A DNA stretch of 64,000 nt from a candidate division WOR-3 bacterium (GCA_026986775.1 JALSNX010000028.1:7609-71608); one strand, 5' to 3'; shown: positions 13,671 through 19,150, numbered from the stretch's first letter. Numbers and translations: made by a program. Notes: generated by a model from the letters alone, not told the origin.

Positions 13671-15150
13671 TCAAAACTCCCATTGCTTTATGTATGTTTT
13701 CCACAAGGTCATGTGGAACATAGTAGGGACCATTCATCTCCTCATACAGAATATCTCCTAAAAGTGCATGAATAAAGACTCCTGCAAGGAGCGCATTGGA
13801 TAAGTCATCTGTCTGAACCAGAAGTCCCCCTATTATACCTGAAAGCACATCACCACTTCCACCCTTCCCAAGCCCCTCATTTCCAAGAACATTCACGTAA
13901 TTTCCATAAGATGTTGATAAAATTGTGGGATTTCCTTTTAAAACCACTTCAAATCCTGTTCGTTCTCTAAGTTTCAATGCAAACGCAAACCTTTCTCTGT
14001 CAATATCATGTGGAGGCGATTTAACAAGAAGTGCAGCCTCACCGGGATGAGGGGTAATGGCAACCTTATCCCTTTTTTCAATATGTTTTAATTCAGAAAG
14101 AGTCCATATGCCATCAGCATCAACAATCAGGGGCAAATCTTTTTTAGCTAAAAGCATCTTTAAAATGTTTACGGTATCATCCCTTCTGCCAACACCCGGA
14201 CCAAATACCACTCCATCAGGCTCAAATTCTCCAATAAGTCTTTCTATGTCACTATAATTCTCGTATGAAACTACCACAGGGTCTATAATTTTAGCGCTAA
14301 CCTGTGTATATACCTCTTTTCGCACAGCAAGATACACCAATCCCGCACCTATTTTCTGGGCTGCATCTGCCACAAGTTGCGGTGCACCTGTATATCCCGA
14401 TGAGCCTGCAATAACCAGAAGTTTCCCGTTTTTCCCTTTATGTTCATTACCCAGTTTAAAGGGAAGATAAAACTCCTCTTCATCAAGAAGCCTGAAAGGA
14501 GGTTCAAACGGTATATTGTATGGCACACCTATGTCTATTACGTAGATTTCGCCAGCGTAAAACCTTCCCGGATACAAAAGCAATCCTCTTTTCGGAAAAG
14601 CCATTGTTCCCGTAATATCTGCCAAAACAGCGGTTTTACCGACCATGCCTGTAAGTCCATTTACACCACTCGGAATATCCACTGAGACAACACATGCATC
14701 CTGCTGGTTTATTACATCTATCAAATCTGCAATCTCCCCCTTTACCTCACCCTTAAAGCCAGTTCCAAAAATCGCATCCACAATGATATCAGCCTCTTTC
14801 AGATATGCCATGTCAAAATCATGAAGTTTTACTACTTCTCCGCCCAGTTTTTTGAAGAGTAAATAATTTTTCCTTGCCTCACCTTTAAGTTTTGAAAATT
14901 TACCCGTAAACACCACAAGAACCTTATATCCCCTGTTTAAAAGGTATCTTGCAACAACAAACCCATCTCCTCCATTATTGCCGCCACCTGCGCATACTAT
15001 TACCTTATCACCTTCACACTCCGATTCAATTATCTCCACTATACCTCTACCTGCGGATTCCATCAGAGTAAACCCTGGAATGCCAAACTCTTTTATGGTC
15101 CATCTGTCAATCTCTCTCATTTCATCCGGGGTTAAAACAAAAGTTCCCAT
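13663..15150 (-). CDS. nnr: Bifunctional NAD(P)H-hydrate repair enzyme: YjeF-N epimerase plus ADP-dependent dehydratase
   Basis: 495 aa. N-terminal VIVCAGGGNNGGDGFVVARYL (YjeF_N). C-terminal carbohydrate-kinase-like GKNGKLLVIAGSSGYTGAPQL ... GGSGDVLSG. Confidence 0.9.
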   Translation of the reverse strand: MGTFVLTPDEMREIDRWTIKEFGIPGFTLMESAGRGIVEIIESECEGDKVIVCAGGGNNGGDGFVVARYLLNRGYKVLVVFTGKFSKLKGEARKNYLLFKKLGGEVVKLHDFDMAYLKEADIIVDAIFGTGFKGEVKGEIADLIDVINQQDACVVSVDIPSGVNGLTGMVGKTAVLADITGTMAFPKRGLLLYPGRFYAGEIYVIDIGVPYNIPFEPPFRLLDEEEFYLPFKLGNEHKGKNGKLLVIAGSSGYTGAPQLVADAAQKIGAGLVYLAVRKEVYTQVSAKIIDPVVVSYENYSDIERLIGEFEPDGVVFGPGVGRRDDTVNILKMLLAKKDLPLIVDADGIWTLSELKHIEKRDKVAITPHPGEAALLVKSPPHDIDRERFAFALKLRERTGFEVVLKGNPTILSTSYGNYVNVLGNEGLGKGGSGDVLSGIIGGLLVQTDDLSNALLAGVFIHALLGDILYEEMNGPYYVPHDLVENIHKAMGVLND

Positions 15151-15599
15151 ATTCCCTCCTTCTTCAACCTCTTTATCATTAAATCTATATGTGAACCTCT
15201 CCAGTAAATTTTATTGCATACTGGACAGAACTTAAACTCATTGAAGTTCTTATAAGTGAAATAGGGCACTTTACCCCTTACATTTTCATGGGGAATGTCC
15301 AAAAGAGGTGCATTACATTTTGAACATCTCGTAAGTATGCGGGGTTCTCTGATATTAAAATGCTTTATTACATCCTTTAGTTGTTCAAACAGAAAATCAC
15401 TTTCAAGCACATATACATTTTTATAAGGAAGGCGATTGAACTCTGTATTTCTCGTAAGAATAACCCTGTTTTCCGCATCAGCTATTTTTAAAAGTGCATC
15501 AGGTTCATGAAAATGCGTTGATTCTGTGTCCTGCCCGAGAAATCTCAACCATTTTGCAAGTTTGAGGACAGTAGCATCGCATAAAAACTTAAAACTCAT
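15132..15599 (-). CDS. Mut7-C/DUF82 family protein (PIN-like RNase domain plus C-terminal Zn ribbon)
   Basis: 155 aa. KFLCDATVLKLAKWLRFLGQD N-terminus typical of Mut7-C. C-terminal CxxC...CPVC zinc ribbon. Confidence 0.6.
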   Translation of the reverse strand: MSFKFLCDATVLKLAKWLRFLGQDTESTHFHEPDALLKIADAENRVILTRNTEFNRLPYKNVYVLESDFLFEQLKDVIKHFNIREPRILTRCSKCNAPLLDIPHENVRGKVPYFTYKNFNEFKFCPVCNKIYWRGSHIDLMIKRLKKEGIWELLF

Positions 15600-16368
15600 G
15601 CTGAAGTTTTATGAGTATCTCCCTGAATAAAAATGCTGCCTTTGTGGCTGAATTTGTGGAGTGGTCCATAAGAGGTGAAAATTCCACTATGTCCGCTGCC
15701 ATAATGTTTTTAAGTAGCAGTATCTCATCCAAAATTTCCATTATTCCCTTTCCTCCCGGTTCTGGATTCGTAACGCCGGGAAATTCGGATGGATTGATTA
15801 CATCAAGGTCTAAAGTGAGATAAACTGGAGTTTTTATGTTCAAAAGCTCATTTCTGTAGTCTTCCCATGCGTAAAAGATATTTTTACTTTTTTCTTCGCA
15901 CGGTGCCTTTGTTCTAACTCCAACTGTAATTACATTCTCTTTGCCAATGAGTTTTTCCACGTGATACATGAAGGTTGCATGGTTATAAACCTCTTTTTCA
16001 AACTCAGGACGTCTGTCCATGTGTGCATCAAAATGCACCACCGTAAAATTAAGGTCAAGTTCTTCTTTCAAATATACGATTAGAGGGAAGGTAATAAAAT
16101 GGTCTCCCCCCAGTGCAACAAAAGGAGGAAATAGTTTTATGTCTTTTAACTTTTCTATAAGAAAATCCGCAAAATACTTTCCCTTTATATCAAGGGGCGG
16201 ATAAAAGTCTGAAAGGTCGTGGTATTCTTTAAGTTCTCTTTCCTGAATAACAGAGTAGTATTCTAAAGATGAAAGATGGTACCTTATAAAACCTGGTGCA
16301 AGTGCTGCACCTTTCTGGAAATTTTCACTGCCCTCATAGGGTATGCCAAATACACTAACCAATGGCAT
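15589..16368 (-). CDS. speB: Agmatinase/ureohydrolase (arginase family); could be agmatine or N1-aminopropylagmatine ureohydrolase
   Basis: 259 aa. Mn-binding motifs GGDHFITFP, VHFDAHMD, LTLDLDVINP are characteristic of the arginase/agmatinase fold. Confidence 0.85.
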   Translation of the reverse strand: MPLVSVFGIPYEGSENFQKGAALAPGFIRYHLSSLEYYSVIQERELKEYHDLSDFYPPLDIKGKYFADFLIEKLKDIKLFPPFVALGGDHFITFPLIVYLKEELDLNFTVVHFDAHMDRRPEFEKEVYNHATFMYHVEKLIGKENVITVGVRTKAPCEEKSKNIFYAWEDYRNELLNIKTPVYLTLDLDVINPSEFPGVTNPEPGGKGIMEILDEILLLKNIMAADIVEFSPLMDHSTNSATKAAFLFREILIKLQHEF

Positions 16369-17173
16369 TTTTTATAAACTCCGGAAGGGCAAAGAGATGT
16401 TCCTGTATGCTTTTATTGTAGTATTTCAGTCCTTCAGGTATATAATCTCTTTTCACAACAAGTTCCGTATCCGTGGCAATGGTAAAACTCCAGAATCCCC
16501 CTGGATACGTGGGAACTGGAGCAAGATAAAGTTTTACCTCTTTAAAGAGTCTCTTAAGGTTCTTAATCTGCTCTTTTATAACACCAAGATGATACCATGG
16601 AGATTCAGATTGAAAAACTACAATGCCATCATCTTTTAAATTCTTTTTAATGCTTTTATAAAAATCAAGCGAGTAAAGGGCAACAGCCGGACCTACAGGA
16701 TCAGAAGAGTCAACAAAGAGAAGGTCAAACCTTTCATTTCTTTCATTTAAATATTTTACACCGTCCTCATAGTAAATACTGACTCTCTCATCTTTCAGAC
16801 GGGATGATGTAAACTCAAGGTATCTCTCGCTAACTTCAACCACCATCTTATCTATTTCTATGAGCAAAACAGATTCCACATCTGGATATTTAAGTATCTC
16901 TCTTACAGTGCCTCCATCCCCGCCCCCTATAACCCCAGCCTTTTTAACCTGTTCCTTAAAAGAAAAGGCAGGATGAACAAGCATTTCATGATAAACAAAT
17001 TCATCACGCTCTGTAAGCATCACAAGACCATCAAGAACCAGCATCCTGCCAAAAGTTTCTGTCTCAAAAACCTTTATTTCCTGATATGGAGACTTCGCAG
17101 AAAAGAGTTCCCTTTTTATTTTGAATATTATACCCGTTCCTTTATCGTGGAATTCTGTGAAGAACTGGTTCAT
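16355..17173 (-). CDS. speE: Spermidine synthase/aminopropyltransferase
   Basis: 272 aa. VLDGLVMLTERDEFVYHEMLVHPA, VIGGGDGGTVREILKY, DSSDPVGPA. Full SpeE signature set. Confidence 0.9.
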   Translation of the reverse strand: MNQFFTEFHDKGTGIIFKIKRELFSAKSPYQEIKVFETETFGRMLVLDGLVMLTERDEFVYHEMLVHPAFSFKEQVKKAGVIGGGDGGTVREILKYPDVESVLLIEIDKMVVEVSERYLEFTSSRLKDERVSIYYEDGVKYLNERNERFDLLFVDSSDPVGPAVALYSLDFYKSIKKNLKDDGIVVFQSESPWYHLGVIKEQIKNLKRLFKEVKLYLAPVPTYPGGFWSFTIATDTELVVKRDYIPEGLKYYNKSIQEHLFALPEFIKNAIG

Positions 17174-17661
17174 TAAAAAAGCGCCACTCCTGCAAACACT
17201 GACACTATACCTTCTACTTTCCTTGATATGGTTTTCACCTTTATCTCTTTAACCTTTATACCCCTCATTTCCATGGCATCTTCAGCCATTTGAATAAGAA
17301 GTTTTTCCGCATCCTTTTCTGAGAGATACCCCGAATACTCCATTATCACACCATGCTCCATGGAATTTTCTGGAATGGCTACAGAAATGCCAGCGGTAAT
17401 GAGAGTGCCTTCCTCGGAGCTTTCAATACTTCCATAGGCAATTGGTAGCAGGCTACCTGCAGGAAGGGCTATGGAATTTTGCTCCCTTGCGCCTGGTGGT
17501 AAAATGCTGGATACTCTTATGAGATTGTATCTTGAAATACCAGCATCGTGTAATGCTGCATCAAAGGCATTAAGGTGGGTTCTGCCTCTGCCACTGCCTG
17601 ACACTATTATGAAATTTTCAGGCTTTCCAAACATAGGGCTTTTTGTCTGTAATGATAGCAC
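17173..17661 (-). CDS. pdaD: Pyruvoyl-dependent arginine decarboxylase
   Basis: 162 aa. FIIVSGSGRGRTHLNAFDAALHDAGISRYNLIRVSSILPPGA matches the PdaD family including the Ser-Ser self-cleavage region. Confidence 0.85.
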   Translation of the reverse strand: MLSLQTKSPMFGKPENFIIVSGSGRGRTHLNAFDAALHDAGISRYNLIRVSSILPPGAREQNSIALPAGSLLPIAYGSIESSEEGTLITAGISVAIPENSMEHGVIMEYSGYLSEKDAEKLLIQMAEDAMEMRGIKVKEIKVKTISRKVEGIVSVFAGVALF

Positions 17662-18532
17662 CTTCTCTCATACTCTTTTTCATATATGGAGGAAGAACAG
17701 TCTTTGCAAAAAAGTATTCCGGGGTAAAGTAGTGTATCCTGTCCTTCAAAGCAGCAAATCGCTTTATCATGTCGTTTTTTCTCTCATTGAGCGCGTATTT
17801 CTTTGAAGCGATAAGAAATGCCCAGTTGAGCTGGAATGAAAATATATATTCATGATAACCGAATACAACAGGGAAAACCTCTTTCAATGTGGCACTAAGG
17901 GCTGATATAAACTCTGTGTACAGGTATTCTGCACTGCCTGCCTGCGCCACAAATACAGCATCAGGCGACATTCTGTCCTTCAGTATCTCATAAAAGTCCT
18001 TTGTGAAGAGGTATATGGCAGGTCCCTCCTCTACGGGCTCTGTAAGGTCGGATATAACCACATCAAAAGGCTCTCCACTGTATTCTTCCACAAATTTCCT
18101 TGCATCCTGAAATAAAACAATGCTTCTTTTGTCATCAAAACTACCATCATGCCACGAAGGCAGATACTCTTTGCACATTTTTACAAGTTCTTCATCAATG
18201 TCAACCATGTAAACTTTTTCAACTGGATGTTTTAAAACCTCCCTCAGGGTTGCGCCCTCTCCCCCGCCCATTATAAGGACATTTCGCGGTGCCGGATGAA
18301 GAAGCATTGCAGGATGAACAAGCATATCATGGTAAATATGCTCATCTATTTCTGCTGACTGCAATTTCCCATCAAGAAAAAGGGTTCTACCAAATGCAAA
18401 GAGATCAAGTATTTCAGCATACTGATACATTGTCTTTTTACCTGCCACATACCTCTTCACACGATACTGAAATCTTAAACCTTCAGTGTACGGCTCTTCA
18501 AACCACAAATTACTGTCCGGGTCCTTATCCAT
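17618..18532 (-). CDS. Second aminopropyltransferase (SpeE paralog); candidate agmatine, thermospermine or long/branched-chain polyamine synthase
   Basis: 304 aa. LFLDGKLQSAEIDEHIYHDMLVHPA, IMGGGEGATLREVLKH, ISDLTEP. A SpeE fold with a distinct N-terminal region. Confidence 0.85.
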   Translation of the reverse strand: MDKDPDSNLWFEEPYTEGLRFQYRVKRYVAGKKTMYQYAEILDLFAFGRTLFLDGKLQSAEIDEHIYHDMLVHPAMLLHPAPRNVLIMGGGEGATLREVLKHPVEKVYMVDIDEELVKMCKEYLPSWHDGSFDDKRSIVLFQDARKFVEEYSGEPFDVVISDLTEPVEEGPAIYLFTKDFYEILKDRMSPDAVFVAQAGSAEYLYTEFISALSATLKEVFPVVFGYHEYIFSFQLNWAFLIASKKYALNERKNDMIKRFAALKDRIHYFTPEYFFAKTVLPPYMKKSMREGAIITDKKPYVWKA

Positions 18533-18544
18533 ACACTTCCTACC

Positions 18545-18949
18545 TTACACGTATGCTTCTTCCTTAACTGAATCAGCATATTTGTACATGTCCTGCTCGC
18601 GGAAAACTCCACGCTTCATTTCCATTACAGTCATATGTCCCGGTCTGAAGTACTTTTCAAAGAGTTTTAAAGCCACATCTATATCAACATCATCAGAGCA
18701 GTAGAAATAATCTACAGCAGCATAACCATGTTCAGGCCATGTGTGTATTGAAAGATGGGATTCTTCTATTATAACCACACCTGAGACTCCATGTGGCTGG
18801 AACTGATGGAAGAATGAACCGAGGGCGTGGGCATTGGATTTTTTTGCTATATCAAGGAATGCTCTCTCAACCTGATCCTTATTTTTGAGGGTTTCAGGAT
18901 CACAATCATACATTTCTATTATTACATGCACCCCAAGGGCTTTTTTCAA
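18545..18949 (-). CDS. speH: S-adenosylmethionine decarboxylase proenzyme (small SpeH/class 1a type)
   Basis: 134 aa. GVHVIIEMYDCD ... VIIEESHLSIHTWPE contains the ES serinolysis/pyruvoyl-forming site. Confidence 0.9.
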   Translation of the reverse strand: MKKALGVHVIIEMYDCDPETLKNKDQVERAFLDIAKKSNAHALGSFFHQFQPHGVSGVVIIEESHLSIHTWPEHGYAAVDYFYCSDDVDIDVALKLFEKYFRPGHMTVMEMKRGVFREQDMYKYADSVKEEAYV

Positions 18950-18979
18950 TTATCCACCTCCTTTTTTTGTTTTACACAT

Positions 18980-19039
18980 TCACCAGTTATCCAGATAAAG
19001 CCTGCCCAGGTACAAACAGCATCGGGCATACTCACACAT
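18980..19039 (-). CDS. Candidate 19-aa Cys-rich leader peptide ORF (MCEYARCCLYLGRLYLDNW) between the operon promoter and speH
   Basis: ATG at 19039 is preceded by a strong SD (AAGGGAGGTGAtata). The stop TGA falls 30 nt before the speH start. It is located downstream of a consensus sigma-70 promoter. The ORF is too short for the supplied ORF track. Confidence 0.35.
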   Translation of the reverse strand: MCEYARCCLYLGRLYLDNW

Positions 19040-19070
19040 TATATCACCTCCCTTTCTTTGTGAGTATTTT

Positions 19071-19099
19071 ATTATAGAAAACCATGCCTGCACGGTCAA
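19071..19099 (-). promoter_or_regulatory. Near-consensus sigma-70 promoter of the polyamine operon (TTGACC-N17-TATAAT)
   Basis: Minus strand reads TTGACCgtgcaggcatggttttcTATAAT. The -10 is at 19076..19071 and the -35 at 19099..19094. It sits 30 nt upstream of the leader-ORF ATG. Confidence 0.55.
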
Positions 19100-19150
19100 G
19101 GAAACTCTGAAAATACACGTTGTTTAGATCTCAAAAATGGATGTGCGAAT

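Follow-up and report, generated by a model that had tools for sequence, protein, structure and literature searches.

In a stretch of 64,000 nucleotides from a candidate division WOR-3 bacterium (GCA_026986775.1 JALSNX010000028.1:7609-71608; the whole stretch is called the window here), speH, which encodes a pyruvoyl-type S-adenosylmethionine decarboxylase (AdoMetDC), is preceded by an upstream open reading frame (uORF) of 19 codons. Comparison with related loci indicated that this leader ORF is conserved, has its own initiation signals, and is under purifying selection at the peptide level. The alignment pointed to a C-terminal hydrophobic-x-D-N-W-stop, and not to the Cys content of the peptide, as the conserved determinant. 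As read from the sequence, control of the speH operon by ribosome stalling is the most likely function of the leader. The elements of the locus were as follows, in coordinates of the window.

19094..19099, minus strand: -35 hexamer TTGACC, an 11/12 match together with the -10 hexamer, with a 17-nt spacer
19071..19076, minus strand: -10 hexamer TATAAT, the other half of this 11/12 match
19044..19052, minus strand: Shine-Dalgarno sequence (SD) of the leader, GGGAGGTGA, 4 nt before the ATG at 19039
18980..19039, minus strand: uORF (leader ORF), 19 codons and TGA, encoding MCEYARCCLYLGRLYLDNW, as read from the sequence
18983..19006, minus strand: codons of the conserved C-terminal motif G-R-L-Y-L-D-N-W, from the leader alignment
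18980..18982, minus strand: leader stop TGA, directly after the Trp codon, the proposed site of a putative stall
18962..18979, minus strand: A-rich spacer from the leader stop to the speH SD, unstructured, from sequence reading and folding
18954..18961, minus strand: SD of speH, GGAGGTGG, with GGAGG invariant in the alignment of leader regions
18545..18949, minus strand: speH, pyruvoyl-type AdoMetDC, TTG start (PF02675, E = 7.5e-40)

The order on the minus strand was promoter, SD, 19-codon uORF, A-rich spacer, SD, and speH. The codons of the uORF (19039..18980) were ATG TGT GAG TAT GCC CGA TGC TGT TTG TAC CTG GGC AGG CTT TAT CTG GAT AAC TGG TGA, exactly the ORF that had been noticed in a first-pass annotation of this DNA. 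That annotation placed a strong SD about 30 nt after the promoter; the SD is there, but it begins 18 nt past the -10 hexamer, and it is the uORF ATG that lies 31 nt past it. Likewise, the 30 nt said to separate the uORF stop from the speH SD reach the speH start codon in the window, the SD being at 18 nt, and the ATG start assigned to speH has to be replaced by TTG (18949-18947), the codon from which homologues align (MKKALG...). The sigma-70 promoter TTGACC-N17-TATAAT at 19099-19071 on the minus strand was recovered as an 11/12 match, near-consensus rather than 12/12. Five sites in the 64-kb window scored at least 11/12 on either strand, and none scored 12/12. From the position of the hexamers we infer that transcription would start approximately 7 nt past the -10 (about 19064), leaving a 5' untranslated region of approximately 25 nt before the uORF ATG.

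Loci carrying speH were gathered by a genome scan, by a metagenome scan with a SpeH alignment, and by look-ups of SpeH homologues; the distribution of the leader given here covers these speH-anchored loci, and its carriers were metagenome-assembled genomes (MAGs) or metagenome contigs. The closest public relatives were MAGs labelled candidate division WOR-3, with SpeH 95% identical to that of the window, and SpeH across the leader-bearing loci was approximately 50–95% identical to it. Nineteen distinct leaders were obtained, 17 ending in [L/I][Y/F]x-D-N-W-stop and two (loci L009 and L098) in FFIDDL-stop. Their lengths were 14–21 codons, and every length difference amounted to whole codons. In the three closest loci (L001–L003), read by eye, the 19-codon ORF recurred with numerous silent changes (CGA/CGG, TGC/TGT, CTT/TTA, CTG/CTT, and GAT/GAC), and with Ser codons (AGT, AGC, and TCT) for the TGT of the window at position 8. 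At L004 and L006, where SpeH was 57–65% identical, a 21-codon ORF, MRDGEADKRIC..GLLYLDNW-stop, occupied the equivalent place. In the leader alignment, M1, D17, N18, and W19 were invariant (D-N-W partly by ascertainment, as considered below), and G12 and L14 were at least 90% conserved. Leaders started with ATG, GTG, or TTG and stopped with TGA, TAA, or TAG, the stop directly following Trp, or Leu in the FFIDDL variant.

The conserved C terminus was flush with the stop in every leader, and the N-terminal half varied in length and sequence. This half was often acidic and often contained one to three Cys residues, the leaders of L012 and L092 having none. The first-pass annotation had counted the triple-Cys content among its arguments against chance; three Cys, two of them adjacent, are indeed present in the window peptide, compared with 0.62% Cys among the residues of the long ORFs of the window, but they are not conserved, members of the family having from none to three. 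Most leaders were preceded by a GGAGG-type SD, at 4–9 nt from the start codon in the loci read; it was weaker (GAGGT or AAGG) in L012, L092, and L097. In all 19 sequences the leader stop was 11–21 nt from the speH SD and 23–35 nt from the speH start, with a nearly invariant run of AAAAA in this interval, ahead of GGAGG. A leader-SpeH fusion made by read-through or frameshifting was rejected because spacer lengths vary modulo 3 and stop codons intervene.

The leader was present at nearly all loci whose SpeH was at least 53% identical to that of the window, the exceptions being L094, L010, and L023. Among approximately 65 more distant speH loci, no DNW leader was found, and only the FFIDDL variant (L009) resembled one. 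The DNA pattern GAY-AAY-TGG-stop occurred 20 times on both strands of 819 kb (the fetched loci and the window); 19 of these occurrences were at the leader position before speH and the twentieth was a chance match without an ORF, which bears out the earlier view that the uORF is unlikely to be random. The variant leaders, at 1925-1972 of L009 ((GTG)MLKCNQKSLFFIDDL-stop) and at about 1428-1475 of L098 ((GTG)MNKYNGSVLFFIDDL-stop), lay 24 nt before a speH starting with ATG; what this subfamily had in common with the DNW leaders was limited to the Asp at -3 and the hydrophobic residues ahead of it. At the leaderless locus L010 (about 880-958; SpeH 55% identical), TTA GTT GAC TGG TAA (L-V-D-W-stop) came directly after the -10 hexamer and lacked both an SD and a start codon; this may be the remnant of a decayed leader.

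Among the five closest sequences, the ratio of nonsynonymous to synonymous differences (pN/pS, from Nei-Gojobori counts) over the whole leader came to 0.19, and in the 17 DNW leaders it was 0.14 for the last six codons and 0.22 for the last eight. The same segments read in the other two frames gave a pN/pS of 1.1–1.9. The low value in frame and the values above 1 out of frame favoured a translated peptide over an RNA element. Over the last nine sense codons, nucleotide entropy averaged 0.70 bits at the first codon position, 0.43 bits at the second, and 1.17 bits at the third; Leu at -6 was encoded by CTT, TTA, TTG, or CTA, Asp by GAT or GAC, and Asn by AAC or AAT. Conservation of the reading frame, which had been proposed as a check on the uORF, was found in all leader loci, with indels of whole codons and mostly synonymous substitutions.

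The promoter accompanied the leader. TTGAC[A/C/T] was found at the equivalent place in 13 of 15 leader loci, with a diverged spacer sequence, and a match of 11–12/12 to TTGACA-N16/17-TATAAT preceded the leader in 13 of the 15; the distance from the end of the -10 to the leader start was 22–40 nt in 12 of the 15 loci. Beyond the promoter, the upstream sequences could not be aligned, and the genes there varied by locus: PGA_cap in the window, and a glycosyltransferase, an aminotransferase, rpmB, or a divergent gene elsewhere. Because the upstream genes differ among loci, the conserved unit consists of promoter, leader, and speH. An alternative promoter, the extended -10-like TGATATAAT (19047-19039, minus strand) that overlaps the uORF SD and ATG, was considered and rejected: L002 has GAGATGATG and distant loci differ, and the match, unconserved beyond the closest relatives, is probably a by-product of SD, spacer, and ATG. 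In a clade comprising L096, L099, and L100, rpmB (ribosomal protein L28) was the gene immediately before the leader-speH unit; the leaders of L099 and L100 start with TTG, and all three stop with TAG. No strong promoter was seen at L096 (best 9/12), and leader and speH may be co-transcribed with rpmB there.

On balance, with a probability a little above even, we take the leader to be a translated, cis-acting nascent peptide that holds up the ribosome translating it when the leader stop is reached, is modulated by an effector, most likely a polyamine, and controls the speH operon. In this mechanism, the leader would be the first cistron of an mRNA transcribed from the sigma-70 promoter and encoding the full polyamine pathway, and the whole peptide would still be inside the exit tunnel when the ribosome reached the leader stop. 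The Trp codon (18985-18983) would occupy the P site with the stop in the A site; conservation peaks at the residues that this position places next to the peptidyl-transferase centre. The C-terminal residues and the Trp-tRNA in the P site would hinder the action of the release factor, and the effector would modulate this hindrance. The eukaryotic AdoMetDC uORF, taken as an analogue, would make a polyamine end-product the likeliest effector, with decarboxylated S-adenosylmethionine (dcSAM) or S-adenosylmethionine (SAM) as alternatives, and on the same analogy a polyamine response of the leader is a reasonable hypothesis.

The ribosome held at the leader stop would alter access of the 30S subunit to the adjoining ribosome-binding site (RBS) of speH, and would do so directly, because the stall site is 11–21 nt from the speH SD and the spacer is unstructured. 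Hindrance would be the likelier effect, giving feedback repression of speH; since the operon genes abut or overlap, the effect would reach the downstream genes, and their tight coupling would spread it over the whole operon. Other outputs found no place at the locus. No intrinsic terminator or attenuator was predicted between leader and speH, and the search for RNA structure before speH suggested in the first-pass annotation gave no stable fold in the leader and spacer of the window, whose transcript folded no better than shuffles (z = +1.26). Neither a Rho utilization (rut) site, nor a Rho device, nor an SD-sequestering hairpin fits an A-rich, unstructured intergenic region of 23–35 nt, which leaves no room for a rut site or for the hairpin of an attenuator. 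With no terminator and no structure, the output of a stall would have to be direct proximity to the speH RBS.

Conservation flush with the C terminus beside a variable N terminus is the pattern of the termination-stalling peptides TnaC, SpeFL, and PepNL. TnaC, the 24-residue leader of tnaCAB, senses tryptophan and stalls at its stop by inhibited release, with a conserved Trp and Asp in the tunnel. The conserved residues of TnaC are spaced out (W12...D16...P24), and its P site is occupied by Pro; D-N-W of the speH leader is contiguous and Trp would be in the P site. The output of TnaC is Rho-dependent, unlike the layout of the speH leader. SpeFL is a bacterial leader that senses ornithine and blocks release at its own stop (10.1101/604074). 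It resembles the speH leader in belonging to the polyamine pathway and in having rare Arg codons inside (10.1101/604074), the window leader having CGA. However, SpeFL has 34 residues, compared with 14–21 in the speH leader, and controls ornithine decarboxylase (speF of gamma-proteobacteria); its ligand is a substrate that induces expression, and its output is Rho-dependent termination over a 257-nt intergenic region with a rut site and a pause hairpin, where the speH loci have 23–35 nt. PepNL, the 14-residue leader of E. coli pepN, acts at its stop codon, where it blocks termination, and represses the gene that follows (PMC11890864). It is inducer-free, depends on release factor 2 and UGA, and is relieved by Trp-tRNA read-through, whereas the speH leaders use UGA, UAA, and UAG. 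By eye, none of the three peptides resembled the speH leader.

In eukaryotes, AdoMetDC has a uORF, MAGDIS, whose control of the enzyme is specific to the peptide it encodes; stalling at its termination depends on polyamines and blocks the main ORF (PMC2811004). The AMD1 uORF and the speH leader are alike in being very short, peptide-specific uORFs directly ahead of AdoMetDC, peptide conservation being shown here for the latter. Both have Asp at -3 from the stop (MAG-D-IS and ...-D-NW), which is a resemblance only: there is no homology, the lengths are six and 14–21 residues, and the AdoMetDCs belong to different classes. The eukaryotic output blocks cap-dependent scanning, whereas bacterial speH has its own SD, so any effect of the leader must come from proximity of ribosomes at the RBS. 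A function shared with the MAGDIS uORF, if real, would have arisen by convergence. By analogy, the speH leader would work like TnaC, SpeFL, PepNL, and the eukaryotic AdoMetDC uORF, and it appears to belong to none of those families.

Several points weigh against stalling at the leader stop. The leader is known from sequence alone, every carrier being an uncultured MAG or a metagenome contig, and the invariance of D-N-W is partly ascertainment because most members, many distant ones among them, were picked by a DNW regular expression; the codons upstream of DNW, the first six loci, and the full-length analysis of the close group are free of this selection bias. L009 and L098 end in DDL, not DNW, which leaves Asp at -3 as the only residue invariant across both subfamilies. 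All three stop codons are used, so a stall cannot depend on one release factor; the effect of SpeFL is likewise reported as not specific to one (10.1101/604074). The distance from the P site at the leader stop to the P site at the speH start is 29–41 nt, as close as two ribosomes can pack or slightly farther apart; at loci with longer spacers a purely steric block may therefore fail, and the regulation could have either sign. Finally, a free micropeptide with a role in trans would account for the selection on the peptide equally well.

Of the other explanations, the one that survives best, though we consider it unlikely, is an arrest or pausing peptide that is ligand-independent or responds to a non-polyamine such as SAM, dcSAM, or 5'-methylthioadenosine, and that sets the basal level or timing of speH translation with no end-product feedback. 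No ligand can be identified from the leader sequence, and Trp is also found at the arrest point in the SAM-induced arrest of plant CGS1. PepNL demonstrates that a leader of 14 residues can block release without an inducer (PMC11890864). Nothing direct stands against this explanation, which shares its evidence with polyamine-modulated stalling and differs in the effector alone, but metabolic logic and the eukaryotic AdoMetDC precedent (PMC2811004) favour a metabolite of the pathway over ligand-independent arrest.

Somewhat less probable still is a stand-alone micropeptide of 14–21 residues that acts in trans, for example by binding SpeH, another polyamine enzyme, or a transporter, and that comes first in the operon for co-expression. 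Strong purifying selection on the amino acid sequence, a strong RBS of its own, and constant co-occurrence with speH all speak for such a peptide. However, its conservation is concentrated in the last six to eight residues and ends at the stop with no C-terminal length variation, while the N terminus varies; the distance to speH is tightly held at 23–35 nt; and the peptide is too short for folding or for a membrane span. C-terminal conservation, fixed distance, and shortness are typical of cis-acting nascent peptides and argue against a micropeptide.

We regard it as improbable that the uORF is a passive device for ribosome loading or translational coupling, whose peptide sequence is irrelevant and which delivers ribosomes to, or unfolds, the speH RBS. 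The short distance from stop to start agrees with this, as does the weak start codon, TTG or GTG, of the speH that follows 17 of the 19 distinct leaders, but a passive uORF would not give a pN/pS of 0.14–0.22 or an invariant DNW-stop; moreover, speH is equipped with a perfect SD and an A-rich enhancer of its own, and the spacer is unstructured. The weak start was also rejected as a sign of obligatory coupling, because TTG or GTG is found in 40 of 66 leaderless loci as well and the speH genes of L009 and L098 start with ATG.

Very improbable, in our estimate, is an RNA element (a riboswitch, a hairpin, or a small-RNA target) whose conservation keeps the ORF open. A short hairpin can be drawn inside the window leader (18995-19028, minus strand; GCCCG...TGGGC), with equivalents in many others: CCGA...TCGG in L013, L008, L095, and L096, CCTA...TAGG in L090, and further ones in L001–L003 and L087. 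CGA, the rarest Arg codon in the window (3% of Arg codons), is retained as CGA or CGG in several lineages. However, the hairpin shifts register between lineages, its 5' arm in L096 is built from different codons (TCC GAC), and it is absent from L012, L092, and L097; RNAalifold on 14 leaders gave 0 consensus pairs, and fold z scores of the ORFs were -3.1 to +0.3, beside +1.26 for the window leader. Variation is mostly at wobble positions and indels are whole codons. Rfam gave no match at E up to 10 on the leader region, and no family reached the gathering score across the 64-kb window. We regard the hairpin as a minor feature and not as the main element; hairpin and CGA may mark a pause or a rare-codon site comparable to R12/R13 of SpeFL, or may be due to chance. 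Hardly credible, lastly, is a classical codon-run attenuator sensing charged tRNA: the three Cys of the window peptide, two adjacent, recall the mycobacterial polycysteine short ORFs, and Cys-run uORFs reported to sense cysteine exist (10.1101/834739), but the Cys count in the leaders is 0–3 with no conserved run, there is no terminator or antiterminator, and what is conserved, D-N-W-stop, contains only one Trp codon, so a Cys-run attenuator was rejected.

Stalling at the leader stop would, if true, be of interest beyond this locus. To our knowledge, few metabolite-sensing bacterial arrest peptides have been described, namely TnaC, SpeFL, and the antibiotic-dependent leaders. Each known arrest peptide is informative on the recognition of small molecules by the ribosome tunnel. 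Full-text literature searches found no description of a bacterial AdoMetDC leader peptide, in agreement with the first-pass annotation, which knew of no bacterial analogue upstream of speH; the strings LYLDNW, YLDNW, YIDNW, and YWDNW did not occur in the matches of such searches. From the sequences, the leaders form a new, previously undescribed family of candidate arrest peptides with a direct-proximity layout, located before bacterial AdoMetDC operons in uncultured lineages. They would provide a new sensor to study, with 14–21 residues and D-N-W-stop before AdoMetDC, and would extend to bacterial polyamine synthesis a translational feedback like that of eukaryotes, a convergent uORF control at the same metabolic step. 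The mode of output would need neither a Rho site nor an RNA switch, the stalled ribosome adjoining the neighbouring RBS. Further claims can be made only tentatively, and on balance we would not expect them all to hold: that this is the first bacterial nascent peptide to sense polyamine or dcSAM/SAM in the tunnel, that DNW blocks release at all three stops, that the stall gates AdoMetDC initiation without Rho or a hairpin, and that the leader is a convergent counterpart of MAGDIS. The leader also adds an unannotated gene to the polyamine operons of WOR-3 and other uncultured lineages.

SpeH of the window matched the NCBIfam equivalog TIGR03330 with 135.7 bits (cut-off 75.65). The genes downstream of speH (15589..18532, minus strand) abut or overlap one another and were as follows.

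18532..17618, minus strand: second aminopropyltransferase
17661..17173, minus strand: pyruvoyl-dependent arginine decarboxylase (PvlArgDC)
17173..16355, minus strand: spermidine-synthase-type aminopropyltransferase
16368..15589, minus strand: arginase-family/agmatinase-like protein

From this set of genes, a pathway through aminopropylagmatine, the production of longer polyamines, or both may be expected, as is seen in thermophiles. The gene order after the leader was identical in L090, L092, and L097, and in L087 an ornithine/arginine decarboxylase replaced PvlArgDC. The ORFs at 18532..17618 and 17661..17173 overlap by 44 nt, and the true start of the decarboxylase may be an internal ATG approximately 27 nt downstream. 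A gene with a Mut7-C RNase domain (15599..15132) comes next and overlaps the agmatinase-like gene. No tRNA genes were found in the 64-kb window. In the WOR-3 relative L094 (SpeH 60% identical), speH at 2479-2875 had neither leader nor promoter; it lay 21 nt after another gene and was followed by a gene for a 1351-residue protein instead of polyamine genes, which suggests a SpeH paralogue put to a different use.

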